Below are positions 2,885-61,538 of a stretch of DNA of 64,000 nt, one piece after another. A program made the translations under genes and the position numbers. The stretch is taken from the NCBI GenBank assembly GCA_958009085.1, contig OY253669.1, forward strand, positions 558,001-622,000, written 5' to 3'. Under the pieces are notes generated by a model that was given only the letters and a program-made list of their open reading frames with translations, had not been told where the DNA came from and made no database searches. The first letter of the stretch is position 1, and every line of letters begins with the position of its first letter. Source of the stretch: Protoeuglena noctilucae. Taxonomy: Eukaryota.

Positions 2885-4138
2885 TCAGCCCTCGCATTCG
2901 CCCGGCTGTGATCGCGGCCGCTCTTCCGAACCCTCACCGGTCGCTTCCCCGCCCTCTCCAGCCCCCCTCTCCTGCCCCAGCGCGGTCCCCTCCGCACCCT
3001 CTCTCTCTCCCCCGCCCCCCCCTGCCGCATCCCCGCCATCTCCTGCACCCGTCCCCTGCCCTGACTTGCTGCCCTCCGCACCCTGCCTAGCTCCCCCCTC
3101 TCCCTGTCGCTCTCCCCCGCTGCCCCGTGGCCGCTCCTTCCCATCCACGCTCCTCTCCGCCACGATCCGGTACTGGTGCTCGAACAGCCACAGGAGGTTG
3201 TCGTAGCAATCGCACGTGGACCCCTCCGCGTGCCGCCCACTGCGGGACTCGCACCACTGCCGGCAGAAGTAGTAGATGGCCTCCACCGTGCAGCAGCCCT
3301 CCTCCGCCACCCCTTTCGTGTGGTACCGCCAGTACGACGTCCGCGTGCCCTCGTCCAGCTTCACGTACCGGTAGCGGTGCGGCTCCCGCGCCTGCAGCTC
3401 GCTCACGAACCGCTTGGCCTGGTACCACTTGCCATCCAGCACCGCGATGTGGGTTACGGCGTCCGGGGTGTCCCCCGCCGGCAGCTCGGATGGCTGCACC
3501 GCGTCGTCTGTGGGGAACATTAGGGCCAGGCCCTCCCTGCGACGGCGAGGGGCGGAGAAGAGTCACATCTTGGCGGGACAAGGGAGCAGGAGCAAGCGCA
3601 GCCTGCCGCGTGCCTGGGTAGCTCGGCCAGCTCCTCGAAGCCCCGGACGAGCGTGCAGTGCTCCGGGGCGAGGACGGGGGCGTGGCCGGCCGTGTTGCGG
3701 GCGGCGGACTCCCCCGGGTGCATCAGCACCGTGAAGCGGAAGGGGAGAGTCAGGCGCGGGAAGCCGTCGACGAGTGGCACGCAGCACTGGTAGCACCAGC
3801 CCGGGCAGCGCTTGTCGCAGTGGGGGCACCGCCTCCGCCCCTGGGACAGCTCCTGCGGGGCACGGGCGGGGGCGAGGGCATCAGTGACATGGGTCATGAG
3901 ACTAGGCTGCGGGGTTCCCTATGCGCGTTGCCGCACTCCGTGCCTTGGGCCAGGGAGCGAGGCGCAGGCCGGTGTGGTTTTCCGGGAACGACCAGTCCGG
4001 CCTGCGCGTGGCGATGTGCGCCGCTTTGACCAAACCCTGCACCGAGCGGGGCTCCGCGTCTTCTGACGCATTCCCAGCGCTGTGTGGAGCCTCGGGGGGC
4101 GCGGTCTTGCGCCGCTTGGGGTTCGGCTGGGAGTCCAT
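2885..4138 (-). CDS. DTWD1: DTW-domain tRNA-uridine aminocarboxypropyltransferase (DTWD1-like)
   Basis: RRRCPHC..WCYQCCVP zinc motif, LMHPGE..NTAGHAPVLAP, LMFP, VLDGKWYQAK, YWRY, CTVEAIYYF, YDNLLWLF. Two introns. Confidence 0.85.
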
Positions 4139-4420
4139 CCGCGCAGCGCAGCCAACGCACCCGCCCCGCGTTGAGTGGCACTGACAAGCCTTTGTTCAAA
4201 ACGATGCGCGCAACTGGTCAGCCAAAGCCTTAAATATCCATTCGCTACGGCTGGGGCACTGGCAGGGGGGCGCCAGTCGCTCCAATGCCTCCATGCAGCT
4301 CCTCGTAAAGTGTGGCGCCCCAGTGCCCATTCTCCATTCCTCGAGTCGTCCCTGCACTCTGAGACCGTGACAACTGCGCACAGCAATAGCTCAGGCTCGT
4401 CTGCGACGAAGAGAGAAAAG

Positions 4421-5265
4421 ATGGCGGTAACGGGGGCCCTCGCGGGGGCTCTCGCAGTTAATGGACGCACGATGGGAGCGAGCGTGGTTGCGGCGACGCT
4501 GATGGCCGCTGGGGTCGATTGCGCGCGCGCGGGACCTGCCCAGGTGACCAACGGGGCCTTTTCTGGTGGCGAGAGTCATCATGTCGATGCTCTTTTTCAA
4601 TTTGTGGCACCACGCGAGCTGTCGGGGCGTCGAACCGCACACGCACGAGGCGTGAAACTTTTTTTGGCGTCGACCGTCACGTCGAGCCCCGACGACTCGC
4701 AAGCGCAGCATTATGAATTCATTAGCTGACTCGCATCCACATCGTCCGCGCAGACTCCCCCGTCGTGCTCGGGATCCCCTCCGCGGGGTGGGGGGACGAT
4801 GGGGCGCGTTACGCGCGTGGGCGCCACGCCGCAGTTTGCGCCCTCGCGGACCAAGGCCCGCAAGAGGTGAGTCCGACATGCAACGCCGGAGGGGCGCCTG
4901 CAGGCTCTTCGATGATGAGCCTGATGCGACGTTAGGGCGTTCGCTGCGTTCGCAGGCGTGCCACGGGCGGGGGCGATGGGGGAGACTCCGGGGACTTTGG
5001 AGGGGGCTGGTGGGATAACTGGGGTAGCGGGGGCGGCGGGGAGGGCGACGGGGGAGCGGGGGGACGTGGCGGGGGAGGGTCTGGGCCCGAGGGGTGGAGC
5101 GCAGGGGGGGACGGGATGGGCAGCTGGTCCGGAGTGGGCCCTGAACTGCTCTTCGTCCTCTGCTCCCTGGCCATGGCAAGAAGCTGCCACTTCATCCTGG
5201 CGCAAGACGGGCGGGGTGCCGCGCTTGCCATGCTGTCGCTAACTGGGATCATGCACGCCCGCTAG
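4421..5265 (+). CDS. Glycine-rich hypothetical membrane protein resembling an uncharacterised green-lineage family
   Basis: Three exons join in phase: a hydrophobic N-terminus, then ..ATPQFAPSRTKARKR|RATGGGDGGDSGDFGGGWWDNWGSGGG...ELLFVLCSLAMARSCHFIL..HAR* (TAG 5263-5265). The first donor is uncertain. Confidence 0.6.
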
Positions 5266-5681: not shown

Positions 5682-6910
5682 ATGTACGGGAGAGCAGCGG
5701 GGAGGAAGTTCTCGGCTGCAAACAGGTCCGAGGCTCGGTCACAAGGCCAGGCTGTCCACTCAAATGGCTTCCGCCCACCTCCTGAAAGCGACGCTGACCC
5801 GGGCCCGCGATGCAGGAGGACGCTCGAGGAGAAGCTGGCGTCGGGCTGGGTCCCACCACCTGTCGAGCCCTCGAAGCCCCCTCCCCGGAAGGCGGTCCAA
5901 GTGCGCGTCCCCCGCGTGGGGCGCCACCGGCCCGGGGATGAGAAGTCCTCTTCGCCGCAGAGGCTGCAGAGGAAGCCCCTGGAGGCCATCCAGATGGAGA
6001 CGGCGCGGGATCTCCAGCTGGACAGGTGCGTCGCTGGCTGATGTCGCATGCGGCGTGCTTTGGCAGTGACCCTGCCCAGACCGACCGTCCGCATGGGCCC
6101 TGCAGGACCCAAGTCCCGGTCCCCAAAGGGCCCCTGCTGGACGATAAGGAGAAGGAGCGGCTAGCGCGCATGATGCAGTACAGGTGAGCCCGGTGCTGTT
6201 GGGTAGTGCCTTCAACATGGGCGGCGCGGGCAGGGGCACGCGGTCAATCCTCCCTTCGCGACGCAGGGGCAAGCCTCCCGAGGCAGAGCCGGTCGCGCCG
6301 GTCGCGCCCCGCGCCCCACTGACTCAGCGGGAGATGCTCGAGGACATGTTTGCCCAGATCGCAGCGGAGATTGACGAGCGCAAGGCGAGCGGCGGGGGCT
6401 GGGAGACGGCCATGCCGGGACTCGCTGTCACACAGTCAAGAGCTTGCGCTGCTAAGCTAGGCATGCGGCTCGCGGAGAACGCTTTACGGATCTCAGGCCG
6501 GGTTTCTCCCCCAGGAGTTCCTCAGCCGCATGACCCAGGCGGGGCGCACGAGGGAGTTCCAGGGCCAGATCCAGGGCGAGATCGCCACGCGCATTCGGGA
6601 GATGGAGCGACTCGACCGCCTGATCAAGACGTGCCCCGAGCGAGCGGCGTCACGCCCACCGCGCCCGGCCCTCGTCCGTGCACGCCGTGGCCCCGTCGGC
6701 CGTGACGAGGACGTCGACGCGGCAGTCGTGGTCGCCCATGGGGACGGAAGGGAGGACCTGACACCGCAGGCCCAGCGCCACCAGCAGCGGCCGCCGCCAC
6801 CCCTGCGGAGGGGCCGCGGGTGCCGTTGCCTGCGCACCCTGCGCCGCTGCGTGGCCCCCGCTGCACGCCACGCACCTCCCGGTCGGCCACGCCGTTCACG
6901 CGCTGAATGA
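5682..6910 (+). CDS. UPF0193/EVG1 family protein (C22orf23-like)
   Basis: RKPLEAIQ, DKEKERLARMMQY, FAQIAAEIDERK|EFLSRM..G..REFQGQIQGEIATRIREMERLD. Homology ends near 6630; the first in-frame stop is at 6908-6910. Confidence 0.75.
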
Positions 6911-7945: not shown

Positions 7946-9021
7946 ATGTTATGCCAGCGCGCACGCGTGGAGGCGGCGTTTGGGGCCGTGCAGCGCGGCG
8001 TCGGGCCAACTGCCCAGCGTCGTCGTGGCCACCTTTCGCGCGCCGAGCTCGACGACTGGCGCTCCTTCAGGGCGGCGCTCGTCTTCGATCAGACGTCTTG
8101 GAAGCGGGGAGACCCTAACGCGGCGAACCTGGACCTCCTGCGCCGGCAGAGCCCGGCGCTGGCGGCGGAGGAGACGTGGTGCCACCCTACCGGGCTCGCG
8201 GAGGTGGGAGGGCTGCTCCTCGCGACGCCCAGGTGCCAAGACATTCTTCAGGACGAGAAGCTGTGGCAAATCGTCGTTCTCATCGTCAGCTTGGGCGAAC
8301 AGGGTGCGGTCGGGCTGACCCTTAACCGACCCACGGACCTTAACATGGGCGTGCGCACGCGGGGGGCCTTCCCCATGGACGTCGGAGGTCTGAGCAACCA
8401 GCACAGGCGAGTGACCGGGGCACTGACTGTCACGGCGCTTCTGTCGCACGGCACGGCTCTCCGACCGCGAACTGCTGCCTTGCGCAGGGCTCACCTGGGC
8501 GCGTGCCGCATCTACTCGGGCGGGCCGACGGCGCAGCAGAGGCTGCAGGTTCTCCACAGGCACGGGTGGCTCGGTGAGTGGAGGATTACATGCGGCGTGG
8601 AGGTGCAGAGCAGTTGGCAACGAGCTGAGATCTCTCCCTTTCCCGCGCGGCAGAGGGGGCCGTGGAGCTCGTCAGGGGCATCTACACCGGGGGGGCGCCG
8701 GCCGCTGCTGAGGCTATCGCTGCGGGGAAAGCCAGCCCCGCTGATTTCCGGTTCTTCGCCGGCGTCCTCGCCTGGCCCAGCGACCGCCTGGGGAGCGAGA
8801 TCGCCGCGGGCGCGTGGGTGAGTGCCCCTGCGCGCTTAGTCTCCATCTCATGGTCGGTGCTTGCAGGGGGCTCTGAGCGAACGGTACTTCTGGCCTTGTC
8901 GCGCCCGCAGGTCACGGCTGCGTGCTCGCGCAACATCGTGCTCAGGCAGTACATCGACCTCCCGACGCCGCTGTGGGAGGAGCTGCGGTGCATGGCTGGC
9001 GCCACGGACGTGCCAGAGTAG
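7946..9021 (+). CDS. DUF179/AlgH (UPF0301) family protein, probably plastid-targeted
   Basis: DWRSFRAALV, EVGGLLLA, GAVGLTLNRPT, IYSGGP, DFRFFAGVLAW..LGSEIAAGAW, TPLWEEL. Three introns. Confidence 0.88.
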
Positions 9022-9241
9022 CAGCGCTGCTGTTTCACCCATTGGGTAGGGTAGCCCGAGCTCGTGCTTGTTACCAGCAGCCGCTCCCGCACCCGGCCCA
9101 GGTGCTCCCGCACGGCCTGCGGCCCGTGGGCGGCCTCCGTCACCTGCTATCGTTCTAGGTAGAGAGACGCGACCTACATAAATGAACGCCCACCTCCCAC
9201 GCACTGCTCTCTCCCACCCTCGTGCCCCCCACGCACTCTAC

Positions 9242-12990: not shown

Positions 12991-14446
12991 TCAAAGCACG
13001 GCGAGGTAGGCCTCCAGCTGTTGGATCTGCCTGCCCTTGGCCTGTATGGCCGACTTGGTGGCCTCCATGGCCCTGTCCAGCTCCTCCTTGTCTGCCGACA
13101 GCTGCGCGTCGTCGCCCCCGTCTCCTGCGGCCAGGCGCGTGGTTCCGTACGTCGGGCCCGGAGAACTCTTCGCCACGCTCGAAAGCATGCCTAAGCAACG
13201 CGGCCTTCACCCGACTTCATCCGCTCTGTCAGCGCCTCAGCGTCCGCCAGCAGCCCCGCGTACTTGCTGTCGAGTACGGCGAGCTCGTCTTCGAGGCTCC
13301 CCAGGACGCCCAGGACCTGCGCCCTGGTCTCGGGGGCGCCCACCTCTTTTGCAGCCCGCAGCCGGGGGTCCCCACAGCCGTCGCGGTGGGCGCGGGAGGC
13401 AGCGCGCAGATGGCCGGGCGCGGGCCTCAAGGTGGCGCCACGGGTGCTCGGCAGCGAGCGCTGCACGCGCTGCACCCCCCCCAGGCGCGCAACGGAGGCG
13501 AGGGAATCGCCTTCGCCCACCCTCAGCACGGGCTGCAGCAGGGCCGTGGCCGACGCGAGCCCCACGTTCTCGAGAGACGGCACAGTCGGATGAGTGCGGA
13601 GGACCGTGTCAGTCATCGCGTCGACGAGGCTGCTGGAGAATGAAAGCACGCACCGCAGCGTCTGCTCCGCACGCTCCAGCTTCTGCAGCACGTCCCGCCG
13701 CAGGGCGCGCTCCCCGTTCGCGCGTCGCAGCGCTGCGGGTGCGGAAGGAGCGACCGGTTGGCGGGGGAACACGGGTCCCTTCCCTTGCACACGTGGGCAC
13801 GCGCCGAACCGCGCCCTTGCCATGGGATGTGGTTTCCCGGGCTTGCTCCATCTCCACCACGTTTCGTTGGATGGCGTCTCTCAGCGTCGCGGCCTCCGCC
13901 AACGAAGCCTGCGCCTCGCCCCTCGCGAGGCAGGCCAGGCTGTCAGCCTGCAGCAGAGGGCGGCAGGGGTCGGTGGAAGGAAAACAAGGCAAGGACAAGT
14001 GGCGCAGGAGAGACCTGCACCCCCTCACCTCGCGTAAGCGTGCTGTCAGCGCCTCAATTTCCTTCTCCTGCTCGCGGCAGCGCTCCTCGGCCCGCCCCTT
14101 CTCCGCTGAAAGACTTGCCACTTGACGTTCCAGCTGTGCAGCCTTCTCGGCCGCTCCTCTGGAGGAACTGTTCTCCTCCACGGCTTTCTGCAAAGCCGTC
14201 TGCATCTCTACCAGCATCTCCCGCATGCGCCTGGCCTCCGCCCGAATCTGCGGGCACAGGAAGTGGGCAGGCGACCGCTCATCGACCGAGGGCGCGCGCG
14301 TGGCCGCCATGGGGCGACCCTCACATCCTCACTTCATCTCTTTCAGCTGCAGTCTTCCGGCTGCGCTCCTGAAGAACCCGGATGGCCTCCGCGGCCGTCT
14401 GGGAAAATGATTCCTGCGCTCGGGGCAACAACGCCAGCGACGCCAT
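12991..14446 (-). CDS. CEP57: CEP57/translokin-like centrosomal coiled-coil protein
   Basis: N-terminal AAEAIRVLQERSRKTAAERDE resembles Cep57_CLD. C-terminal VLGSLEDELAVLDSKY...ELDRAMEATKSAIQAKGRQIQQL resembles Cep57_MT_bd. Confidence 0.6.
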
Positions 14447-15306: not shown

Positions 15307-15325
15307 GGCTAGGCCCTATTGTAGC

Positions 15326-16872
15326 CTAGGCGAGCTGCCACCGGGTGCGCCCGGCCAAAAGGTGAACGTTGTCGTCGGTCACGCGCCAGCCCTTGTCCTC
15401 CAGCTCGGCCACGAAGGCGTCGAAGAGGCCCGCGACTGCCTCATACTCTCGCGCCTCGTCCTGCCACTCCCCACGCCTGCCCTGGAGCAGAACGTAGCAG
15501 TGGAAAAGCCCCGCCAGGCGGTCGAGGCGCGTCCCGCCCTCGCGCAGCAGCACGTACCCCCGCTGGCCGTCCGTGGCAGCCAGGTAACCCCGCGTCGATG
15601 CTGCCGCGTGGCGCGCGATGGCCGCCTCGTCCCCGACGCAGCGAAGGAACTCGCCGCGTGTGCATCCGATGCGCACGCGCGGCTGCAGCACGCCGTCCAG
15701 GCGCAGCACACTCTCCCCCGCGCTGCACGACTCGGGGGTGGGGACGCGTCCCTGCGCCTCAAGCAGCGCCCAGGCGCGCTTGTAGTTGACGGAGGTGATG
15801 CGGAGCTGCTCCAGCGACTTGAGACGCAGCCAGGCGTGAGAGGCGTGCACTGCAACCCACGTGCCGATGACCGTCTCGGGGCCCGGGGCGTCGTCCAAGT
15901 GATGGAGCAGGGCGACACTGCAGGCGACGAGGACGCGGTGGCGTTCGGACATGCCTGCCACGCGCGAGAGTGCCACCGGAGAGGTCCAGCCAGCGCCCCT
16001 CGCCTGCACGCCAGGCCCGTCATCTGCCCCACCACCTCCCACAGCTCCTCCTTCGCCGCCACGTCCCCGACGTTGCCGCGCGAGAAGTGAGTCTGTATGA
16101 CGCGGGAACACGGCCGGGCGACGCCTCTGCCCACGGCGCGCAGGAGTGTTCCCCCGCCAGCGAGTAGCAGGAAAGCATCGGGGTACAGCTGGGCACTGAT
16201 CTCCATGGCCAGACCCCTGCGGGCGCGACGAGGACCCCGTCGCGCAATACGCCGAGGTCGCGTGGCGGGTGCATGGCCCGGCCTCGGGTACGCACATAGT
16301 AGAGACGCCCTCTGCGGCCATGCGCCACAGGCGCGGGTCCTCGTCGATGTGCTCGCCACCCGCCACGCCGACGACCAGGCGGCCCAAGCTGCCGATCCCA
16401 TCCTTCAGCACCCACTTGACCGCCACGCTCGCTGCGACGGTCCCCGCAGGGTCCGCGCCCACCCCAGCCGCCTGCGGGTGACGGCAGGCAGCTCCTCGGG
16501 CGTGCCGGGCACGAGAGCGGGATGTCGGCCATTAGCCAGGTCCAGGGCGCCTGGCCTCCAGCCTCAGCACCTTGCCTTCAGCAATGACGACGTGGTCAGG
16601 CTCGCAGAGACCCAGCCCGTGACGTGCACCGGCAGCGTCGCGAGCTGGTACGGAAGGTAGTCCGATGTGCAGTTGGCGGGCAGGAAGAGGGCCCGCAGAT
16701 CCAACCCCAGCTTTTGGGGCCCTTCTCCGTTCGTCGTGGTGACAACGTTTGTGGCCTCCACCCTCGGCAGCGCAGGGATGCGTGGCCAATCGCGCGACCG
16801 CTTCATCCAGTGCCTCGCCAACGAGCCTCGCCAGCGAACCGGGCTCGTCCGCGCATTTCCTCGCACGCACAT
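15326..16872 (-). CDS. RUS1 / root UVB-sensitive (DUF647) family protein
   Basis: FLPANCTSDYLPYQ, AVKWVLKDGIGSLGRL, DEDPRLWRM, HFSRGNVGDVAAKEE, LNYKRA-like VNYKRA, FVAELEDKGW. Confidence 0.9.
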
Positions 16873-21805: not shown

Positions 21806-22342
21806 TCACTTCAAGTGCATGGCCAGGATGTCTGGGCTGCCGCGCATGACGTGGCACTTGATGGTCTCGAGGCCCAGCCGCTGGCACGCCTCGAACCTGT
21901 GACAGCCGCTGAAGTTGTAATACACCCCGTCCACCTCGATGACGTCGATGGGGACCTGGGCAGGAGCGGGATGCAGGCCTCATGAGCGAGGTCCGTCTCG
22001 TCGCGCACGTGCCAGGGAAACCGGCAGCGGTCCTCGCCTGCTGGCCGATCTCCGCGATCGATTCCATCAGGCTCTTCACTTTGGCCTCGTCGTTCGTACG
22101 AGTGCCGTCGAGTGGCCTCCGGATCTCTGTCAGGGGCAACACGACGACGCGGCGCGACACGCGGGGGACTCTGCGGGCTCGGTGTGCATGGCACGTCCAT
22201 CGAGTTGCTCAGCAGTGGAGGGCCCACTGCTGAGCAACCACTGCTGCTCTGGCCAGGGCGAGCACCGAGGCACCCCCACTGAGCCTCACCTCCGGTACCT
22301 CCCCTTCGCGTCCACAGCGCTAGCAGCCACAACCGCACGCAT
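21806..22342 (-). CDS. SRX: Sulfiredoxin
   Basis: IRRPL..TRTNDEAKVKSLMESIAEIGQQ|VPIDVIEVDGVYYNFSGCHRFEA (catalytic FSGCHR), ending MHLK*. Confidence 0.93.
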
Positions 22343-48300: not shown

Positions 48301-48714
48301 GGACGGGCGATACGCCGTCTGGTATGAGGGATGGCGCACGCAGGGCATATCACGAGCTCACGTGAGCTTCAAGCGCGGGATCTCTTTGCCGTTACATCAA
48401 TAGCGCCCCAATTGTCATCATTTTCGAGTGAGTTCATTCTTTGTTGACTTAATTGTATTTTGCTTCTGTTGCGCAGGCAAGGCATCGCCGCTGCTCAGGA
48501 CATCTCCGCGCGCACGCACGTGCGTAAAGGCGACGGGCCTCTCCTGGCCGCGGGGGCAGTGGCCCGGGCTGGCGCGGGGGCTTTGAGAGCGGGCGCACAT
48601 GGCTTGCTCAGTGCGGCTCGGGTCGCCATGCAAGGAGCAAAGCGGGACATGGAGCGGGGAAGGCGCCGCCCTCACGGATGGGTGCAGTCGCGGAGGCGCA
48701 AAGACAGCGGGTAG
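39381..48714 (+). CDS. ATG2: Autophagy-related protein 2 (lipid transfer)
   Basis: Chorein_N MLSVPSWATRRL|LALLIRSFLGSFL..QLEVQLGSG; C-terminal FFQRVRV..CIDYRPRHMD..GNLAELLN..ITLKGIELKGV and WARDI..IIQGLPAFRS; ATG_C DTPSGMRDGARRAY. The middle exons are divergent. Confidence 0.88.
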
Positions 48715-48778
48715 AAACTGGGCTGCAGCACGCATGCGGTTTGCACGGCCCCCTGCCAGCACCCCTGTGCCGAAGCGC

Positions 48779-50871
48779 TCAGCCCCTTTGAGCCGCCGGC
48801 GAATGAACAGAGGAGGAAATAGAAACACGAGCTGAAGACGACGGCGGCGACGGGGTCCGAGGGTACCTTGGGTCCTGCAAGCCAGGGTCGGCCGCACGGT
48901 GCTGAGCGCAAGCCACTCGAGCAGGCAACAACAGGGTTGAGTTTGCTCCGCTGACCTTTCTTGGTGATGACCTCGCGTACTCGTCTGTGGGCCAGTACGA
49001 GCTCTCTTGCTGCAACCTGTCAGTAGGCAGAGAGGACGCGGTGGGGAGGCGGCGGACAGGCGACCAACCCATCCCGCTCACGGACTTGGCCGCTGGGGAG
49101 TCTGCGATGGAACGAACGTAAGAAGACTCAGAAGGAAAGATTTTGGCGTTACAGGGCGATGCGCTGTAACGAAGCGTACCTGTCCCTTGCGACGGCTTCG
49201 CTGCTGCTGCTGCCAGCCTGTGGTGGCCACTGTTGACCGGCTGGCCCCCTGCATCTAAACCCCGAGAGCTTCCTCCGAGTGTGTGGATTATGGAATCAAT
49301 AGACACGCGCGCTGCACCGTCTTCGCTCCCTGACCCGTTTGACGTGGCCTGAGCCCCAGGGAGTGCCTCGAGGCCTCGCCCCGCGCCACCAACCCCTCCG
49401 TTGACACGTGCGCCCCGCCCCACTGCGCTCGCCGTGCCCGCGCCCTCGTCTCGAATGGAAAACAATCCAAGCCCATTGCCATCGTGCGACGACCGGGTCG
49501 ACGACCGGCTGCGGCGCTGCGTCGAGGACCCCCCTTCGCCCTCGAGGCTCAGCCGCCGTCGCGTCGAGGGGCGGCCCAGGTCCGGCCAGTCCAGGAACGG
49601 GGCCGCCGCTTCGTTTGAGACTTGAACGGCCTGGGCGTCGTCCACAACATGCGGCCCTGGAGCCCCCAACCACGCCAGCAGGACCTGGACCAGGGCATCC
49701 ACCTCGCATCCAGCGCTGGTCTCTGCCCGCGTCGGGTCCATCCCGTACGCACGACACAGCTCCTGCGTGGAGTTGGGCCGCTCCGTGTTGCCGCCTACCC
49801 ATGAGGACGAGCACAGTTGCGCCGTCTCGCTCGCAACTGCCGGCTCACGCTCAGTGGCCCGCGTCCTTGCTGAGTCGATGCCCCCTCCTCTTGGGGAGGC
49901 ATGGCGGCCTCTCCGATGTCCAAGACGAAGTATCCCTCGAGCAGGGGCGGCAGAGGAACCCCAGACCTGCGGCGCAGTTGAACAGGGAGGGTGACAAAAG
50001 CGACAAGGCATGGCTGGCATGCACGCCATGACTCGCAGACGGGCCCATCCGCGCCTGATCATGTCGTTGCGCAGAGCGCGGTGGTGGTGGGCCAAGGGGC
50101 ACGCTGCGAGCACCACCGTGGGACTTCCATCCACGGCCCTCGCCACCCACGTCCAGAATCGCCCCAGTGCTGCGCTCGTCACGGGCGCCTTCGCGGCCCG
50201 GAGCGCCTCTGGAGTTATGCCATGTGCCTGCATGGCCTTGGGATGGATGAGTCGCTTGCCCGATGTAACATCCGCATCCTGCACCGCAGAAGCCGTGCTC
50301 AAATCGCCACAGCCCCGCCGGACCCATGGTGATCCCCGCCCCGACCCTTCCCGACTCACCACCAACGTGTCGAACGAGTCCCCGGACGCTTTCCAGACCT
50401 TCTCGGCCTCGTCCCACACTACCACTGCTGCTGCCAGCTCCACCATCGCCCCTCGCTGCCCGTGGGGCTGCGGGCCTGTCGACCTCGTGGCGAAGACGAC
50501 GGTGCGCCAGGACTGCGCCCTCGATGGCGAGCCGCGCGACGCTCCACGCGCCGTCAGAGGCAGGCGAGCCGGGGACCCATGGAACGAGGACGCGGGTACA
50601 GGGGACAGCGGGGGGGATGCACGCGGCGACGACGACGGTGTCCCGTCGTCCCACCCCTCCCCGGGGCCCCTCCCCCGTGTCCCGTGTCGCGCCGCAGGAC
50701 ACAAGGCTCCCTCATCAAGCGCTGCTTGCGTGCGGCCAGACTCGTCGCATCCTGGGTCAGCAGAAGAGTGTCACGCAAAGGTGCCAGCTGTCTCTGGGCC
50801 CTGGGAAGGCGATGCCTGTGTGGGAGTGGACACCCCTCGGTCCCCAGGGACGTGATTTTGCGCATGGCCAT
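48779..50871 (-). CDS. DnaQ/DEDDh-like 3'-5' exonuclease domain protein with degenerate catalytic motifs
   Basis: TVVFATRSTG..MVELAA..FDTLV..IHPKAMQAHGITPEAL..AP..ALGRFWTWV..VVLAA follows the DnaQ fold pattern. The start is uncertain. Confidence 0.6.
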
Positions 50872-51663
50872 TCACGCCCTCGAAGACTGCAGTCCCCTCC
50901 GAGCGCTGCTGGCCTGCCTGTGCTGTGGCCCCCACTGTCTGGCGCATGGCCCCCTCGGCCCCGACCGAGGCACCGAGGATACTCGCCCTCGCGCCCTGCG
51001 GCGGACGCGCGCCGGACCCAACAGCAGATCCGAGAGTCGCACGGGCCGCCGCGAGGAGGCGAAGGAGGGTCGTCGCCGTCAGAAGCACGGCGAGGGCGCC
51101 AAGCCAGACTGGCACTGGACTGCGGCGACGAGCGTGCGGGGGTGACGAGAGCGTGCACGACCACCAAACAAGGCCGCGACATCCTCGCGAAGGACGCACC
51201 TGCACGGAGCCGGGGCTCCCCACACGGCTCTCCCCCACACCTCCCAACACGCGGCGGTCGCCATGGAGTCCGCGAGGGCCCTCCACCAGACCCCGACATC
51301 CGCTCGGCGCAGGGATGCAGCTGCGCCGGCGCTCCCGGCTGCAAGCGCCGCCCACATCGCCAGCCATTCGGGTCGCACAGCCGTGCCGCGGACGCAGTGC
51401 TGTCCTCGGGGTGGGACTGCCAGAACGTCCCAGTCCACGTGGCCACCGTTGAGACCCCCGCGAACGTTGAAGTCACCCCAGGGTGGCCAGGCGGCGCGGA
51501 CGGGCGCGAAGTCGCAGCAACTACTCCCGGCCAGGAACGCCCACCTCGTAGTGGCCGCCAGGGCCACGAGGTGCACTGCGACATCTCCGACAGCCCATAA
51601 AAACCATCGCGACCTTGGATGCAAGGGCCGCGCTCTGCAAACGAAGCGACCGGCAAAGGACAT
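50771..51663 (-). CDS. Possible hypothetical membrane protein
   Basis: Hydrophobic, Trp-rich segments in ORFs 51079-51663 and 50771-51367. Splicing is not resolved and these may be 5' exons of the exonuclease-like gene. Confidence 0.25.
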
Positions 51664-52073
51664 TCAAACTAAAGTGTCGGCACTTTGCTCTGCAATGCGC
51701 CGACAGGCCGCGTCCGCATTCCGTCCCCTAGCTCACCCCAGCCCGGTTGCCTCCGCCCCCACAATGTCGCCCCACTCAGCAAGCGTGGGGTGCCTTGGAA
51801 GGCCGTGTCGAGCAGGTTCCAGCCACGAGCCCATTTCCTAACCCAGTCATGCGTGCGCTAAGGACATTCACCGCTGACGCTCTACCCTCCCAAAAAGCAC
51901 AGAGGCAGAGTTCGAGGGGTGTGCACTTCGGTGGGCCGGAGAAAAAGCTGGGCCAGCCGACACGTGCGGCACGTCCGCCCCAACTTAAGCGAAGGCTTCC
52001 AGGTCCAAGATGGGACCAGATTCCCACCCCTTCTGGATAACTGTTTGTGCCACACTCCCCGCCAAGTGTTTCC

Positions 52074-53398
52074 ATGCTTGGCCTCGCCTCCAGGGCCTCG
52101 CTGGCCACGCAGGCTCCCTCGGCCGAGCCCGCGCGAAGGGAAGCATTGCGATGTGCGGCGATCGGCAAGCATGAGGTGGGAGGCGGGGCCATCTGGGCCA
52201 CGGACGCCTTTCGGCGTTTCCCGTCGATCCTTTTCCGCGGGGCCGACTTTGTTCGACGTCCCGAATCAGTACTCGCCTTATTTCGATCGTTTTAGCCGCG
52301 ATGGTCGAGCGGGGGTTGCGCGGAGGAGGCTGTTGGGGCTGCAGCGCTGGTGCCCTGGGAAAATCGGTCCTGATGGAAGCCAGCACCGCGTCGACCGGCG
52401 TGGAGGGTCGCGTCGCCGGCATGACAGTCGTCGGATTCTCCGATGCGACTTGGGATGCCGCGCAGCGACGGATGTGGGTCTCGATCGGACCCTGAGGGCG
52501 AGCCTCCGCGTTCTGTGCGCTTGCAGGAGCCCTCGGCGCTGCAGACGATAGGGAAGCGGCTAAGCAGTCTCGCGCTGTCGGGCCTTCTGGCGTTCGCCCC
52601 TCTCAGCCCCGCGGTGGCCTCGGAGTTTGACGTCCTGGCTGACGATGTGCCGGCAGGCTACCTCATCGACGATGCGGGAATCCTGAACGCCGTCACAAAG
52701 GGCCAGATCAACGCGGAGCTTAAGAGCCTGGAGAATGCCACGGGTGACGCCCAGGCCTTCCTGGGGAGCGCGCGCGAGGGTGCACACAGCACCGCCCTTG
52801 CGGCCCACACTGGGCGCCAGTCCCCGCGCGCAGGGTACAAGGTGGTGGTCATTACGCTGCGCAAGCTGGAGTACGACCCGGACGCCTTCTCGTTCGCGGA
52901 CAAGATCGTGGAGAAGTGGTACCCGACGGCTGAGCTGGGGGACAAGAAGGGGGTGCTGCTGGTCGTCACGGCGGCCAAGGAGGGCGCAGTCTCGGGGGGC
53001 CCTAGCTTCATGAACACGATTGGGGACAACCTCATCGACGGCATCGTCAATGACAACATCCCCATTTTCTCAGGCGAGGAGGATGCATGTGGCGGCGGAC
53101 CACGCGCCTCCTGATCGGGTGCTCTTCGTGCAGCCTCACCCCCGCCCCCCTCCACCCCGCAGAGGAGAAGTACAACGAGGCGGTCACGTCGTCCCTGCGC
53201 CGCATCGAGGCCGTCCTCCAGGGAAAGGAGGACCCGGGTGGGCCGGAGCGCAAGGACAACACGCGGCGCCGGACGTACCGGACGAAGGAGGAGACGGACA
53301 AGTCCAAGACGGTCACGACGACCGTCGTCGCCACGCTGCTGCTCATCGCGTTCGTGGTGCCCATGCTGCAGTTCTATGGATATGTCTCCCGTGACTGA
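52074..53398 (+). CDS. TLP18.3: Thylakoid lumen TPM-domain protein TLP18.3/Psb32
   Basis: Transit peptide MLGLASRASLATQ.., lumen signal ..SPAVA-SEFDVL, YLIDDAGIL, DAFSFADKIVEKWYPT, EEKYNEAV, C-terminal LLLIAFVVPMLQFYGY. Confidence 0.92.
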
Positions 53399-53496
53399 GG
53401 GGGGTGTGCTGCAGGTGACTGGGTCCGCCCCGGTAGTTGAGAACCGCTGGCAGACGCGCGACCCCTTCAACGCGAGCCCGCACCATGCCGTAACAT

Positions 53497-55082
53497 TCAC
53501 GCGAGCGCCCTCAACAGATAGCTGACCAAGTCCCGCACCACGACCACGCTGAGGCTGTTCCCCAGGAGAGCGTACTGCTGCCACACCGTCACCTCCTGCG
53601 GACGGCGAACACAGCTCGATGCACGGCCAAGCACACTGCCATGCCTGCTGACGCTTGTTTGCGTACATGACACACCTCCGGGAACGAGAAGGACGGTGGG
53701 AAACCGTGGAGGTTGGCAATTTCCCGAGGGGAAAAGAAGCGCAGCTTCAGAGCGCTGAGCGTGTCCGGTGTGTGGTAGGGGATTTGTTGCGCGTCGCCCG
53801 CAGATGCAGGCCCCTCTCCGTTGGCCGCCCACGGAGGCGTTTGCCACGACCCGGGGATGCCCAGGGCCGAGAGCTGATCCTCGGCACCCGCACAGGTGGC
53901 CAGCAGAGAACCGGTCCCGCGAATGTACCGCCCGTAGCCTTTGGTGAAGCAGCAGCAACGACCTGCGCCTGCCGTGGTAATGTCCATGCTTCCGCGGAGC
54001 ATCCGCAGCGGCACTGCCAGCGAAGGGGGGTCCCCGGTCGCCGACGACGAATCGGGTCGACTGCCGTGGTCCTCGCACAAGTAGTCCGACAGGGGCCGTA
54101 CCGACATCGCCTGCAGTTCCGAGGACGGGGTGGCACTTGCGCTACCCTTTCACATACAGGGCCCGGTGCCACGAGCAGGACGCACCTCGCTGGAGCAAGG
54201 CTCGCAGCCGGCAGACTGGAGCAGCCGAGCAGGGGAGCAGGTGCAGGGCCTCCCCATCGACGTGGCGGGCTGTGGGAAGGGCTTCTTCGACGCAAGCAAA
54301 AAGTAACGGGGGCGGGAATATGGCACTCCATACTGCGAAAGTGAACGCACACCAGGGCTCGGCACCTCTCAGCGCACTCTCCATCCCCACACAAGGCGGC
54401 GCCCCCCACCTGTGTCGGCGTCAGCACGAAATCCTGGATGTGATACCCACAGGCTTGAAGAACTTCCTCCAGCAGAACGCTGCGAAACAGAAACCTCTCG
54501 CCCTTGCGTGGCACAATCAGGTCAGTGCCTCCTGTCCTTCAAACATATGCGCACAGTCTGCCTGAAGCATTTCCACGCGCCTTGTCTGCGAGGCCTCGAA
54601 CCCCACGACGTTCTCGAGCAGCAGACCTTGGGGCTGGAGGTTGGGCCGCATTTTCTGCAGCTCGTCCATGAGGGACAGGAAGCCCTCGGCCCTCGCGTCG
54701 CCCGACCCTTTCCTGGAGCCGAGGTCGGGGCCCATGGATGCCGCCCGTGCGCCGCAAAGCCGTGCTCGCTCTCTACGCCATGTCTGCGCCCAACCCATCC
54801 TCGCCTGTGGCCGTTCCGGCTGTAGGGCTGGCACGGGGGACTCATCAGCCATATCGTCGCCCCAAACTTCTCGAGGTCGTCGGCAGTGAGCGACTCGCAG
54901 CTTCTTTGACAAGGTCGGTCTCCAAAATTGTGCTCGTAGGTCGCGTTGGCGACCTCGTTTACGTCGAACGCCGCCACGGTCGATACACGCCCTTGCGCCA
55001 CACCCTCCGCGGCGCCCTCCAGCGCAAACCGCAGTCCCCCGATCCCACTGAAGAGCTCTAGCGCAACCACCGGAGTTGCCAT
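53497..55082 (-). CDS. DNMT2: tRNA (cytosine-38-C5) methyltransferase DNMT2/TRDMT1
   Basis: Motifs LELFSGIGG, SPPCQPY, LLENVVGF, PYSRPRYF, DNMT2-specific CFTKGY, LRFFSPREIANLHGFP and LLGNSLSV. ATG at 55082-55080. Confidence 0.95.
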
Positions 55083-55508
55083 CACTCACGCATGGGGTTC
55101 TCGTAGATGTTCCTCCGGAAAAAATCCCGCAAGTGCTTCTTCGCGAAATCGTAGTAGGCCTCCTCGATGAGCACGCGCACCTTGTCGTCCTCGCCCCAAT
55201 CCAGTTCCCCGAGCTTTCTGAGGCGCGACAGAGTGCAGCGTTTGGGCGCCATGAATCTCGTCCCACTCCAAGCGCGCAGCTCTCCCCTGCGCGCCTCCGC
55301 GCGCGATAGCCCTTCCCCCGCGTACCGGTGAAGAAACTTGCGTCCCTCCGTCTGCTGGTCGTCCAAATACTCCAGAAATGCCTTTGTCGCCTCGTCGCAC
55401 TCTGCGAGGACGCCGATGGGCGTGGTGGGCGCAGCCGCGCTCGGCACGGCTTCGCGTCGCGCTCACGGTCCTACCTAGCAAGACCAAGCGTGTTGTCCGC
55501 GTCGGCAT
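55082..55508 (-). CDS. TFB5: TFIIH subunit p8 (Tfb5/GTF2H5, REX1-S-like), 81 aa
   Basis: Three exons give MPTRTTRLVLLECDEATKAFLEYLDDQQTEGRKFLHRKL...LRDFFRRNIYENPMRE*, matching the Tfb5 pattern VLIECDPAMKQFLLYLD..GKKFI. Stop TGA at 55084-55082. Confidence 0.85.
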
Positions 55509-55928
55509 GACCGTGGGCTATCCGAAAACCGCTCAAAAGCTCTCTCCACGTTTGCGCTGCTCCTTGAAAGCTATCGCCCGCTTTGACGTCGATTACCGCG
55601 AGATGTGGCACACCAGAAGAGCGGCACGAAGAGTGTGTCACCATCGGGGGGCGCCGGGGAAGGGTGAAGGTCCTTTGCCATTGGTACTGGCACATGCTGA
55701 ACCGGGTCGCACCGCCAGTCAGTGCTGGTCCGACGGGGTCCTACGCATTCAACGAAGGGAAGTGGCTTGGACAGATCTCGTGCTGCATCGCGCCACCCAA
55801 ACCGGCTTTGGCTCGCATCTATGTCAGGGCGCAGACCGCGTCCCTGCGTGGCCCTGCGGTGATGATCACATGGCACCCATCCTCTACAGGATGTGGGAAG
55901 TCGTCCCGGCTTCGGAGGCAGACCGACG

Positions 55929-57748
55929 CTACCTCGTCCCCAGAGAGAAGCCTGCGATCCAATGGGCAGATGCTGGGCGCGAGTCGGTGCACGGGCTGCC
56001 CACGGCGCATGAACATCGCCAGAGGTTGCCAGCAGGGGCAAGTGCGCTCACCTTGCAGGCTCGGGTCGATCAACGACTGGCTCATGGATGACCGCCGGCG
56101 CTTGGATGCCAGAGCGGGCGGGGGGATGCCCATGCGGTCTCTGCGTGTCGCAGCCGATGGCGCCGGCTGTGCGGTACGACCCTGGCTGCGCCAGCACCAG
56201 GTCCGTGCGCATCCACAGCACTGCGCGCCCCGTTCGCCCAGCAACTTGCCTGATGGGCGTCGTGCGGTCGCTGAAGACAGGGCTGGCGAGCTCCGAGTGC
56301 CCCGAGTGCATCTCCGCCTTGGCTATCTGCACCGCTGACCAGGGACTGAGCTGGGACGTTCCGTTGCTGAAGTGCCTCGACTGCATGAGGGGCCCCGTCC
56401 GCGGTGCACTCTGGTGCAGGACCTGGGGTCAAGCGGAGGACGGCCATGTCACAGGGGACAGCTGCTCCAGAGTCTATCGCTATCGAGCCTATCGCTCACC
56501 AGCTGGTGCCCACCCGGCACCGACGCGTTGCCAGCCCCGGGGCCCCTCGAGCTCCCCCCCATGAGCTGCTGGTTCAACTGGGAGATCTGCGTCCTGCGCA
56601 CAGCACGCGATGACGTGTTCAGCTTGTTGCTGGCGCGGCCGCAGTCTCGCCTGGAGCCACCGCGCACTCGGCGCATAAGTCGTCACACCTGAGCTGCTGG
56701 TTCTCCTGCCGCAGACTCCTGACTTCCCTGTGGGGCAGAGCCAGCGCCACGCTGTCGTGCATGTCTCCAGACGCGAGGCATAGCTGCACTCGACCAACCC
56801 CGGACCTCGCCACGACCTGCTGCTTACCCAGATCGGTGCGAGTACTGCACGGCCATCTCCTGCTCTTTGCGCTCCTGCTGCACCATGGCCTCCTCCATCT
56901 CCGCCAGCTTGCGCTTGTAGCGGTGGTTCTCCTCGTTCAGCTTGCGCAGCTTGTCCTTCGCCTCGGTGAACACGCTCTGGAGCTTCTGCTTGATCTTCTC
57001 CTCCCTCTGCGACCAAAAGCCACAGAAGCCACCACCCTTCCCACTGGCAGCTGCGCAACAGGGCACCTCACCCGTCCGTGCCACGGCTGCACGTCACGCT
57101 GCCAAGCAGGTCGGTCGCACCTTGAGACTGACGAGCTCCTGCTGCGAGTCGTAGAAGTCGATTGCGGCCAGGGCGCAGTTCAGGATGGTCTCGGGGACCT
57201 GCACTGGCCCAGACGCGGGCAGATATATCCATGGCTGGGCCAGCAAGACGAGTGAAGACTGCGCTCAGGTCACGAGCGTCTCACCTGGCCGAAGAGGCAC
57301 GACTGGAGGTTCTCAGAAGGCTGCTGAAGGACATGCACCAGGCGCACATTGGACTTCGTCAGGGGCTGCTCGCAGACAGGGCACGCCGGCGAGTCCTCGA
57401 ACGTTTTCTCCGCGCAGGGGACGCCTGCAAGCGCCGTTAAGAGCGTTGTGGGGCGATGAGCCCACCAGGTGCTGCTACCCGCACGCTCAGCCCCTAGCGC
57501 GCCCTCTTGAGCCCCGCATCTCACAGAGCAGGTGCCCGCAGCTCGTAGCGATTGTCTTGGTCCCCTCGGAGAAGGCCGTCCAGCATTTATTGCACTGCGA
57601 TGGCTAGGATTTGCTGCGGTCAACCGCTGAAGACCAGTGCTGGGGCTGGCGGGCCCAGCCGTGCCAACGCCCGCGAGATCCGGTCTGACGTCGCAGCTCC
57701 GCAAACAGACACACGCGGGTTACACGGCGCACCCGCGCGCACCTTCAT
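55929..57748 (-). CDS. HEI10: Meiotic crossover RING E3 ligase HEI10/CCNB1IP1
   Basis: MK|CNKCWTAF..IATSCGHLLC|..CPVCEQPLTKS..PETILNCALAAIDFYDSQQEL followed by a coiled coil. The 3' exons are approximate. Confidence 0.85.
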
Positions 57749-57999
57749 CGAGCGCCATTATTTGCGCATGCCAGGAATGCTGCTTTTGACGATGGCAGGC
57801 GGCCGACAGTCCCTTTGCAAGAGGCCTAGTGTACACGGACAACTCTCTGCAGGTTGTGGGCTACCCGCTGATGGCTGCGCGCACGGCGCAGGCGAGCTGA
57901 TCGGGTCATGCCAGTGGGTGCGTTGCGGTGCTCGTGCGCTTTGCGGGTGCGACAGGAGGCGTGGCAGACACCGCGGACGCATTCACAGGGGTAAGCGAG

Positions 58000-60711
58000 A
58001 TGTCCAGCCTGGCGTCGGTCTCGTTGGCCGTCGCGGCCCCCGCGTGGGCCGGCCGCAGGCCTGCTGCGTCGGTGGGAGCGCCCCGCTCGCAGGCCGTGGC
58101 CTCCCTGCTTTTGCATTCCCATTTGGACGTGTATGGCCTTCACCGCACGCCTCGGGCCGCGGTTGTCGCGTCGGCACAGGCAACGAAGGGTGAGCCGCCG
58201 GCTGGCGACGGGCTCCCTGGCAATGTCCGCGGAATCGGGCCACATCACGGTCATTTATAAAGTATGACGTCAGCTGGCGCAATCACATGTGAAGCATGCG
58301 GTGCTCGGGGTGCGAGGTGTGAGCTTTCCATGCTTCATCCGCTGCACGGGGGCCCTCCGGCGTGACGGTGCGACGACACGACTAACTGCAGCATTCACAA
58401 TGAGCGTGTAAAGATGTACAGTCTGTGTTTGGCAATTTCTGGGGCCGTCTCTCCGCGGCCCGTCCCTTGCGGGCACTCACGGACGCCTTTGGTGCCGTCC
58501 CGATTGCAGAGAAGGTGGACAAGCTTGTCGTCCAGCCAATTCAGAAGATCGAGGGGCACGTGAAGCTCCCGGGTTCCAAGTCCCTGTCGAATCGGTGCGT
58601 GGGCCGCCTTCCCTCGCCCCAGCTGCCGCAGCAGGAGCTTGTGCGCGCCGCGCATCACCGGGCTCTTACTGCGTCGTCGCCCTCAGCATCCTTCTTCTCG
58701 CTGCGCTGGCGGAGGGCACGACGACCGTGGAGAACCTGTTGGACTCCGACGACATCAGGTGACCAAGGGGAGGGCCACAGCCTGCACCAGCCTGGCTCTG
58801 TCAACCTGCTCCGACGCTGGCCAAGGGCGATATCCTGGGAGCCTGCTGCCGATGGAGAGCCTATGAAGCCTTCTGTTGCAGGTACATGGTGGGCGCCTTG
58901 AAGGACCTGGGGGTCGCAGTGGAGGAGGACTGGGCCAACAGCCGCATGGTCGTGCACGGTTGCGGGGGCACGTTCCCAGCCAAGGCGAGGCCTGCAGCTG
59001 ATGCGTAAGATGTGCTGACCAGCGCGCAGTTCCGTAGCCAAGCGTCCGCGCCGTGGCCTGGGATTTAGAACGACCCTTCCCCTCGGCGAGCCACAGGGTG
59101 CGGAGCTCTTCCTGGGGAATGCAGGCACTGCCATGCGGCCCCTCTGCGCGGCGGTGGCCGCGGCCGGAGAGGGCGTCTTCGTGCTGGACGGCGTGCAGCG
59201 CATGCGGGAGCGTCCCATCCAGGACCTGGTGGACGGCCTGGTGCAGCTGGGGGTCGAGGCGGAGTGCACGATGGGCACGGGATGCCCGCCCGTCCGCGTG
59301 GCGGCGCGGGGCCTGCCCACGGGGCGGGTGCAGCTGAAGGGTTCGGTGTCCTCGCAGTACTTGACGGGTGAGGGGCATGCCTAAGTTTTGTGGAGTCACT
59401 GGCATCGGCGAAGATGATGCACAAGCGTTGTCCCTTCTCTCGCAGCGCTGCTGATGGCGGCGCCGCTCTCCAAGGGCGACGAGGGCATCGAGATCGTCAT
59501 CACCGGTGAGCCATGCTGTTGGCCCCGCCGTGTGCCGGGAGCGGAGCAGACGTGCTGGCTGGCGCTCGGGATTCCAGCGGCTCGGTCCCTCCCGCCCACA
59601 GACGAACTTGTTTCCCAGCCGTACGTGGACATGACGATAAAGCTCATGGAGCGCTTTGGGTGAGGAAGGATGGGTGTGGATGTGAACGGCCAATTGCAAC
59701 CACGATGCGCGGGCCCCCGAACGACAGTCTTTCCCCGGTCCGCGCCTCAGGGTGAAAGTGGAACGCCTTGACGGCTTGCAGCACCTTCGCGTGCCCGGCA
59801 ACCAACGCTACGTGAGCCCCGGCACTGCGTACGTGGAGGGCGACGCCTCCAGGCAAGGCGCTGTCCTAGCTTGCGCGCCTGTGCGTCTGCTCAGCCCCCA
59901 TCCGCCGCGTCCATAATCCGCCGCGAGTCGCTCGCAGCGCTTCTTACTTCCTGGCCGGGGCGACCATCACGGGCGGCACGGTCACGGTCGAGGGCTGCGG
60001 CTCCGACTCGCTCCAGGGCGACGTCCGCTTCGCCGAGGTCATGGGTCTCATGGGGGCGCGGGTGGAGTGGCAGCCGTACGCCATCACCATCACGGGGCCC
60101 TCCGCGTTTGGGGAGAAGCTCAAGGCCGTGGACCACAACTGCAACGACATCCCAGACGCAGCAATGACCCTCGCAGTCGCGGCGCTCTTCGCGGAGGGCG
60201 TCACGACAATCCGGGACGTGTACAACTGGCGCGTCAAGGAGACGGAGGTGAGGGCCAGGGACGGACGACGCGTCGCGCGCCGTGGCTCTGTTCAAGAGAG
60301 GGTGCAACTACTGCTTCCCCCACGCGCCACTTGTTTACAGCGCATGAAGGCCATTGTGAACGAGCTGACGCGCCTGGGGATCAAGGTCACGGAGGGCCAC
60401 GACTTCTGTGTGGTCGAGGGCGCGGGAGGGAAGATCAAGGCCGGTGTCGAGGCGAGGGGATGCCGCGAGTCGCTAATGTCGGGGCAGCCACAGTGCTCTA
60501 CGAACCCTCTTTCTTCGAGGTTTCCGGCAAGACACAAAGGCAGCTGCCCCTGCCTCTTGCGCAGATCGAGACCTATGACGACCACCGCATGGCCATGGCG
60601 TTCGCGCTGGCGGCGTGCTCGGGGACTGCGGTCACCATCCTGGACCCGGGCTGCACCCGCAAGACCTTCCCGACGTACTGGGACGTGCTCCAGTCCGTCG
60701 CCAAGCACTGA
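58000..60711 (+). CDS. EPSPS: Plastid-targeted class I EPSP synthase
   Basis: [77 protein letters not shown]. Ten introns. Confidence 0.97.
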
Positions 60712-60756
60712 CGCGTGTCGGATGACTGTCGGAATATGCGTTGAATCCAGTGGTTC

Positions 60757-61538
60757 TCAGCCCCCACCCGCCTCACTCCCTCGAGCGAGAATCCACTCCC
60801 ACACTGCCGGATCGACTGGCGTGACGGACTGCCGCGGGCGCCGTATCTGCGGGCACCGGCAGGCAGGGGCCTCGACGGCCGCGTGGCCAGGGGCGGTCGC
60901 GCGAGCTGCAGCAGATTCTCGCCAGAAAGAAGTCACGGAGCTGCGGGGGCGCGTCCTCTTGGCTGGCGGCCTGCTTGATGTCCTGAAGCGTCACCGGCCG
61001 CGGGAGTCGTCGCACAAACGTGACATCCACCGCGACCCATCTTGGCTTCTCGCGCGTGGACTTGGGGTCAAAGTACTTGTGACCTTCTTCGAACTGGGTG
61101 GGATCGGGGTACGCCTCGCGGGCTACCGTGCAGACGCCCACAACGGCCGGCACCTTGCAGCTGCTGCGCGCGAGGAGAGAACCGGGCTGCACGTGGATGC
61201 CGCACAGCCGCCTCGGCGCCTCCATGCGATGCACGTGAGGAACGCGCACGACACCTGTGGTAGAACAGCGCGTGGTCGCCAATGCGCATAGCCTTCAGGA
61301 CGTTTTTTGCCACGTGATTGCGCACCCCTTCCCACACGCCGCCCCCCTCGCCCCGCTCGAGGTCTTCTATGCTGTACTCGTCTGGCTCGCTCTGCGGGCA
61401 TCGTCTGAAAAGCCTCAGAGATCGCTCCCACGTATGAAAACCCATCGGGTCTGCACTCGCCTTGAGCAGGAACAGCGATGCTCTGTCATCAACGCTCCCC
61501 ACGCTCTGCGGCGCCTCGCGTTTCCGCTTGATGCCCAT
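60757..61538 (-). CDS. EVE-domain protein (THYN1-like)
   Basis: [68 protein letters not shown]. Confidence 0.92.

Follow-up and report, generated by a model that had tools for sequence, protein, structure and literature searches.

Abundant GC-AG introns in a GC-rich stretch of DNA from a probable marine green alga

Introns that begin with GC instead of GT are the subject here, as they occur in 64,000 nucleotides (nt) of contig OY253669.1 (positions 558,001 to 622,000, forward strand), a stretch that will be called the window and whose positions are counted from its first letter. The window is filled with dense eukaryotic genes with short introns: those introns that are backed by RNA or by homology are 73-437 nt in length, most of them 75-125 nt. 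Its G+C content is 67% overall and lies at 61-73% (0.61-0.73) in every 4-kb bin, while in the coding sequence of the EPSPS gene the G+C content of third codon positions (GC3) reaches 0.89 (89%). An original prediction, made from the letters of the sequence, named 20 introns with GC donors in these genes, put their share at about 15%, and called them exceptionally frequent. The evidence that they are removed from messenger RNA, how common they are, and what might maintain them are considered below.

The source of the DNA is, to judge by its resemblances, a marine, GC-rich chlorophyte. This view is taken because its EPSPS resembles the enzymes of green algae, because of its G+C content, and because of matches in marine metatranscriptomes. 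The best matches to an EPSPS exon are an unnamed environmental protein (91% identity), a protein of Pedinophyceae sp. YPF-701 (90%), and proteins of Chlorophyceae (84-87%); nothing in the protein collection exceeds 91% identity among the matches listed, and neither Micromonas nor Chlorella variabilis contributes a protein to the best 120. Marine metatranscriptome runs contain about 0.4-0.45 of the words sampled from 52500-62000, and DNA runs of one organism contain all of them.

The most direct evidence for GC-AG introns comes from RNA, in the form of contigs from four metatranscriptome runs (two samples of one study) that were aligned to 44001-64000 and are at least 99% identical to it. Of the 42 joints in these contigs, 15 are listed, and 14 of those skip sequence; with ambiguous bases resolved, 11 of the 14 are GT-AG and 3 are GC-AG. 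The three GC-AG joints are found in all four runs, and no GT cut lies among the equivalent positions of any of them. In a gene resembling TPM/TLP18.3, the contigs join 53070 to 53160 with three ambiguous bases, and the sole canonical-like cut gives an intron at 53074-53162 on the + strand (cag/GCGAGG, the slash marking the exon-intron boundary). In a DNMT2-like gene on the opposite strand, the intron at 54713-54804 (cag/GCGAGG) is read as CT..GC on the + strand, again the sole canonical-like cut, and the same gene possesses a second GC-AG intron, at 54480-54580 (-; aag/GCGCGT; likewise CT..GC), that the original prediction had not listed. Two further introns come from the contigs in other ways. 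In a gene with an EVE domain, a contig has a loose end at 60847 that matches the window at 60924-60936, which places an intron at 60847-60922 (-; ctg/GCGAGA) between exons that match positions 53-117 and 124-144 of the EVE profile. In a large ATG2-like gene, a contig of 6001 nt runs directly from 44175-44688 into 44771-45348 with an ambiguity of four bases, and the cut reads GC..AG, giving an intron at 44693-44774 (+; cag/GCAAGG), also missing from the earlier list. For five GC-AG introns, then, RNA contigs lack the segment; the absence of seven more from mature messenger RNA is deduced from homology that runs uninterrupted across them.

Those seven were found by a protein-to-genome spliced aligner in which GT and GC donors were given equal cost. 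EPSPS is the clearest case. Its alignment scores 1793 when both donors are permitted and 1665 when only GT is, and with GT alone the alignment has to insert micro-exons and gives up conserved residues. Permitting all 16 donor dinucleotides at the same cost leaves the same GC sites in place, GC beating every decoy. The alignment to proteins P0003 and P0005 places GC-AG introns at 58985-59096 (+; aag/GCGAGG), 59853-59937 (+; cag/GCAAGG), and 60452-60564 (+; gag/GCGAGG), the three sites that had been claimed, within an aligned part that holds nine introns. The second of them had been offered as an example in which splicing rebuilds a conserved stretch of protein, and the alignment to homologues bears this out. 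At the third, Pfam profile positions 339-371 and 375-417 are approximately continuous across the junction, and splicing at a GT that lies 6 nt upstream would cost two conserved residues.

Three other genes tell the same story. A gene resembling RUS1 (DUF647) has three introns in its spliced alignment, of which two are GC-AG: one at 15918-16003 (-; cag/GCGAGG), called with 12 of 12 homologues, and one at 16472-16575 (-; aag/GCAAGG), called with 10 of 12, where profile positions 10-55 and 56-107 are exactly continuous across the junction. In the sulfiredoxin gene, an intron at 21956-22037 (-; cag/GCGAGG) separates exons that abut at residues 55 and 56 of chain 6ky4_A. The conserved part of CDC27/APC3 has five introns, one of them GC-AG, at 34445-34525 (+; cag/GCGAGG), called with 6 of 6 homologues; it is 81 nt long, in frame, and without a stop codon. 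Here a GT alternative lying 13 nt further on, 34458-34538, comes within 7-37 score units, but its donor is poor. A public open reading frame call that is 100% identical to the window (P0122, 393 amino acids, 33930-35108, +) runs through this intron into the next one; it was rejected as a gene model, being a call made on unspliced sequence.

What became of the 20 introns of the original prediction can now be stated. A GC lies at the position and on the strand given in all 20 cases, and it follows exonic AG in 18 of them, as had been said of nearly all; the exceptions, at 13820 and 60922, follow TG. In 19 the donor is GCGAG or GCAAG, that at 3613 being GCACG. The exact junction is confirmed for 10 of the 20, four more are consistent with protein domains, five rest on ab initio prediction, one has an ambiguous donor, and none is refuted.

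The four that agree with domains come from a Pfam run on 118 single-exon translations, which gave approximate continuity of the profile at donors 3613, 8407, 61460, and 6385. In the EVE gene, the probable intron at 61392-61460 (-; aag/GCGAGT; 69 nt, in frame) is called also by the gene finder described below. The EVE profile begins, at position 7, on the residue that opens the exon after the intron, and on read-through homology begins only past the intron; the join claimed here is consistent with the coordinates of the domain. In a gene resembling DUF179/AlgH, profile positions 3-37 and 55-73 flank a probable intron at 8407-8487 (+; cag/GCGAGT; 81 nt, in frame), and read-through would give about 33 surplus residues relative to AlgH chain 2mui_A. 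In a DTW-domain gene, the probable intron at 3537-3613 (-; cag/GCACGC) separates profile positions 4-52 from 81-192, which are read in different frames, and the closest GT alternative trails it by 15 nats. In a UPF0193-like gene, the exon downstream of the probable intron at 6385-6514 (+; aag/GCGAGC) matches positions 173-210 of the profile, the match opening with the exon's first residue. Here the closest GT alternative trails by 12 nats, and the only model to contain the intron is a raw one that was displaced by a rival overlapping it. Three of the introns described so far, at 8407-8487, 34445-34525, and 61392-61460, have lengths that are multiples of three (81, 81, and 69 nt) and contain no in-frame stop, so their retention would add 23-27 residues and not truncate the protein.

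The remaining introns were called ab initio, by a simple gene finder trained on the evidence-backed set and given a prior of 0.15 for GC donors. It produced 24 gene models with 91 introns, 24 of them with a GC donor, doubtful calls included, and it recovered independently 17 of the 20 sites claimed earlier. GT alternatives fall short by 6.9 nats or more at all claimed sites, the smallest margin being that of the predicted intron at 24837-24928 (+; cag/GCGAGG) in a gene for a Cys-rich protein. The margin is 22 nats for the predicted introns at 28355-28434 (-; aag/GCGAGG), in a gene with an IQ motif, and at 31561-31642 (-; aag/GCGAGT), in an EF-hand gene where the EF-hand_1 profile ends, at 23 of 29, on the last residue of the exon. 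Also predicted are introns at 20525-20609 (+; aag/GCGAGA), in a VTT/TVP38 gene whose upstream exon has no homology to anchor it, and at 56141-56249 (-; cag/GCAAGT), in the tail of a HEI10-like gene, a region (56007-57340) that the RNA contigs do not span. In a gene for a coiled-coil protein, the donor of the intron at 13733-13820 (-) is ambiguous, either 13820 (tg/GCAAGG) or 13814 (gg/GCGCGG); the finder favors the latter, and both are GC donors. For donors 20525, 24837, 28434, 56249, and 13820, the single-exon Pfam run spoke neither for nor against. The finder predicts two extra GC-AG introns, at 27030-27127 (-; cag/GCGAGG), in the same gene as 28434, and at 26053-26141 (-; aag/GCAAGT).

Might a finder permitted to use GC simply find it wherever it looks? 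When GG, CG, or CC was permitted alongside GT and GC, with equal numbers of candidate sites and the same prior, 0-4 such donors were called, as against 21-24 for GC. The sequence AGGCGAG occurs 35 times on the two strands, and 15 of those occurrences serve as donors. None of the 18 occurrences of AGGGGAG or the 16 of AGCGGAG, both strands counted, is used as one.

Some neighboring features deserve description in their own right. The ATG2-like gene (39420-48400, +) is very large, with an open frame of 1389 amino acids at 39420-43589 and a weak match to ATG2 at 47441-47587; RNA contigs lie over 44-49 kb, and the ab initio finder missed it. Its composition is unlike that of its neighbors, with a G+C of 0.61-0.66 and a GC skew of +0.09. 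The EPSPS gene (+, stop at 60711) and the EVE gene (-, stop at 60757) converge, their 3' ends overlapping on opposite strands, and one RNA contig of 2313 nt passes from spliced EPSPS exons through 60339-60846 to spliced EVE exons. In the 5' region of the gene resembling TLP18.3, a contig found in run X2 only jumps back 189 nt, from 52271 to 52083. This jump adjoins an intron of 351 nt (52176-52526) and could be an artefact of assembly, a duplication, or a back-splice.

How frequent are GC donors? Among the RNA joints listed they account for 3 of 14 (95% confidence interval 5-51%), a count with a binomial probability of 3.4e-4 of being reached or exceeded if the true share were 1%. For comparison, 44001-64000 has at most 41 RNA joints that skip sequence and, within it, five GC-AG introns by RNA and three by homology. 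The ab initio predictions give about 22 GC donors in about 90 introns. The evidence-backed introns, 12 with GC and 22 with GT, give a higher share (12 of 34) from a sample biased upward. Taken together, I estimate the share of GC-AG introns in the window at about 15-25%, or about one intron in five. The 15% of the original prediction falls within this range and is low if anything.

Whether that is exceptional depends on the company. GC-AG introns are a minor class in plants, about 1% across 121 plant genomes (PMC6310983), and the GC-AG introns of plants and animals are 15-25 times less frequent than those in the window, so against these the word is apt. Against other GC-rich algae it is not, for abundant GC-AG introns are already published for several of them, one a marine green alga. 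In the excerpts of the papers on which the following comparisons draw, Iwata and Gotoh (2011, PMC3033335) give shares of 39.6% for Aureococcus anophagefferens, 22.2% for Micromonas pusilla, and 7.7% for Chlorella sp., link them to genomic G+C content, and call their origin an enigma. A member of this group would be expected to have a genomic G+C of about 64% or more and, genome-wide, a GC-AG share of several percent or more; the bins of this window have 0.61-0.73, and within it GC-AG makes up 3 of 14 joints by RNA and about 22 of about 90 introns by prediction. These algae and the one behind the window are alike in high G+C, in short introns, and in GC-AG shares tens of times the usual 1%, and M. 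pusilla has about the same share and is also a marine green alga. They differ in that the organism is another one and its genes are rich in introns, as the nine in EPSPS illustrate. The annotations of green algae surveyed among the 121 plant genomes reach 5.6-7%, the highest counts of major non-canonical introns being those of Chlorella sorokiniana (7090 of 124435), Micractinium (8057 of 114347), and the M. pusilla annotation (496 of 8831) (PMC6310983).

Algae outside the green lineage provide further cases. Emiliania huxleyi, with 65% G+C, uses about 60% GC donors (Feldmesser et al. 2014, PMC4028052); as here, they were verified by RNA and overlooked by gene predictors, and the authors credit the G+C content. 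E. huxleyi is a haptophyte, however, with GC the majority donor, whereas in the window GT keeps the majority (about 75-80%). The pelagophytes A. anophagefferens and Pelagomonas calceolata have about 14-17% GC-AG introns, and a low-GC relative has 0.32% (bioRxiv 10.1101/2024.10.30.620910). Their share is similar to that estimated here and is likewise attributed to high G+C, but they are stramenopiles with few introns per gene, and their shares come from gene prediction.

The character of the introns in the window gives some idea of how they might be maintained. All 12 of the evidence-backed cases were verified by script to run from GC to AG. None of the donor strings (GCGAG, GCAAG, GCGCG, GCACG, GCGTG) resembles the U12-type 5' end, (A/G)TATCC. 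Median lengths, 89 nt for GC introns and 91 nt for GT introns, do not differ. What does differ is the sequence around the donor. Amongst evidence-backed donors, the full context AG/GYRAG holds 10 GC and 2 GT donors, and all other contexts 2 GC and 20 GT (Fisher p=2.8e-5); restricted to junctions from RNA alone, the full context is found in 3 of 5 GC donors and 0 of 11 GT donors. Position by position, GC donors have A at -2 in 92% of cases, G at -1 in 100%, A at +4 in 80%, and G at +5 in 100%, the corresponding figures for GT donors being 55%, 96%, 58%, and 86%. Outside of +1 and +2, the mean number of matches to the consensus complementary to U1 is 5.25 for GC donors and 3.94 for GT donors. 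GC donors are not relaxed sites, therefore; their flanks are stricter than those of GT donors. The U2-type GC-AG introns of plants and animals are like those here in having the same terminal dinucleotides and a stronger consensus at the other positions of the 5' splice site, a well-established compensation that Burset in 2000 and Thanaraj and Clark in 2001 are said to have described.

There is also the matter of base composition. Within introns of the window, C makes up 0.64 of all C and T, and GC makes up 0.72 of all GC and GT dinucleotides. In the full context, the share of C at +2 is 0.83 of evidence-backed donors (10 of 12, a figure inflated, like the 12 of 34 above, because the aligned genes had been flagged in advance for GC donors bearing the motif) and 0.65 of all donors (20 of 31), while in other contexts it is 0.09. 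Where the flanks are complete, in other words, the share of C at +2 is about that expected from the base composition of introns. The excerpts of Iwata and Gotoh (2011, PMC3033335) do not contain this dependence on full as opposed to weak flanks.

I propose that these are ordinary U2-type GC-AG introns, about a fifth of the total, produced by GC-biased drift at position +2 with compensation by the flanks, and I regard this explanation as probable. Substitution pressure towards G and C, arising from mutation bias, biased gene conversion, or both, would keep turning the T at +2 of donors into C. The change would be nearly neutral only at 5' splice sites whose pairing with U1 and U6 is already good, those with exonic AG, G at +1, R at +3, A at +4, and G at +5, and in other contexts C at +2 would be removed. 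GC donors would hence pile up in AG/GC(A/G)AG and stay rare in weaker contexts. I infer, in saying this, that the direction of change is from T to C, that it is nearly neutral, and that the U1 and U6 machinery is standard. Drift driven by GC pressure was one of two causes offered by the original prediction, and it fits the high G+C content, the GC3 of EPSPS, and the nearness of the share of C at +2 to the composition of intron interiors.

The other cause offered was relaxed or specialized recognition of the 5' splice site by a variant U1 or U6, and one may ask more generally if the splicing machinery has changed, in the 5' arm or modifications of U1, in U1C/Luc7, in U6, or in Prp8, so as to accept C at +2 like T. 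The idea is invited by GC donors being 10-20 times as common as in plants and animals, and also by the difference between M. pusilla (22%) and Micromonas RCC299 (2.7%), which in the excerpts of PMC3033335 is explained neither by G+C content nor by U1 and led its authors to propose a base modification or proteins of the U1 small nuclear ribonucleoprotein (snRNP). Stricter flanks at GC donors, however, are the opposite of what relaxed recognition would produce, and the same excerpts describe the first 11 nt of U1 as canonical in two algae with the same trait. For these two reasons a variant U1 or U6 is disfavored, and altered machinery seems to me unlikely. An Rfam search of the window gave 0 matches; no gene for a small nuclear RNA lies in it. 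A special form of the idea is that in this alga, to which the protein collection searched offers no close sequenced relative, C and T at +2 are functionally equivalent at donors flanked by the consensus, perhaps through recognition by the U1 snRNP or U6 that has been shifted by RNA modification or by proteins; this I think unlikely. If true, it would make this organism an independent, intron-rich system in which to study how recognition of the 5' splice site evolves under GC pressure.

It might also be that GC donors are selected as weak sites, useful for regulated retention of introns or for alternative splicing. The contigs shown leave the intron at 60452-60564 in place, the three in-frame introns with donors at 8407, 34445, and 61460 lack stops, and the heavy use of GC-AG introns by E. 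huxleyi accompanies pervasive intron retention (PMC4028052, in excerpt). But retention is not something that contigs can measure, and the stretch left in may belong to the convergent EVE transcript: because the contig joins EPSPS to EVE, genes that converge and overlap at their 3' ends, retention and overlay by an antisense transcript are indistinguishable in it. Moreover, GC donors occur in housekeeping genes of every kind, with flanks that are strong, not weak. I consider selection for weak sites improbable.

Copies of a mobile intron family with a GC donor, akin to the introner elements for which Micromonas pusilla is known, would account for donors as stereotyped as AG/GCGAGG, but the idea is rejected within the window and is very improbable, since an all-against-all blastn of its 102 intron sequences revealed no families (the six non-self hits being, in four cases, a single intron present in versions that overlap and, in two, chance matches of 15 nt) and GC and GT introns match in length. 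Finally, that GC donors are artefacts of annotation, the true donors being nearby GTs or the segments coding, can draw on the half of the claimed sites that rest on domain coordinates or the gene finder, on GC dinucleotides with passable flanks being 2.5 times as numerous as GT (2047 versus 797 candidate sites), and on P0122 reading through the intron at 34445, but it is scarcely credible in the face of five junctions supported by RNA and seven by homology with no GT option at equivalent positions, and of tests with decoy dinucleotides that point the same way.

Returning to GC-biased drift with compensating flanks, several points weigh against it or against the figures on which it stands. Micromonas RCC299, with 64% G+C and only 2.7% GC-AG introns, indicates that G+C content alone is insufficient (PMC3033335, in excerpt). 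The test of donor context suffers from ascertainment, in that the earlier sites were found by the motif and genes were chosen from that list; EPSPS, RUS1-like, CDC27, and sulfiredoxin were all aligned for having GC donors flagged earlier, which biases the evidence-backed share. The count of 3 in 14 is based on 15 of 42 RNA joints, and the overall share on one window of 64 kb. One GC-AG intron, 60452-60564, is still present in the contigs shown, which have 60339-60846 in one piece. Of the 23 evidence-backed introns, the gene finder recovers no more than 13. Both the DNMT2-like and the ATG2-like gene escape it, profile positions 197-267 are absent from its P450 model, and its CDC27 model was corrected in part by homology. 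Among its 24 GC calls, three or more are wrong or doubtful: 52445 sits within the RNA-supported intron at 52176-52526, better GT alternatives exist for 58404, and 18036 is weak. Nor do relatives help to follow the EPSPS donors through time, for the best 10 of 80 metagenome loci (L001-L010), whose identity to the query exon reaches 87%, carry 0-1 introns, all of them placed elsewhere than those of the gene here, which has at least nine (58400-60711).

Whatever maintains them, GC-AG introns at this density matter in a practical way. Gene predictors that know only GT would misbuild about one in five introns here and so affect most genes with multiple exons; the micro-exons that a GT-only alignment inserts into EPSPS and the read-through of the CDC27 intron by P0122 are examples. 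The biological point is modest: the GC-rich algae in which GC-AG introns abound gain an intron-rich green member. Within it lies a small but clean hint, that the exchange of T and C at +2 may be nearly neutral only when the consensus context is complete.

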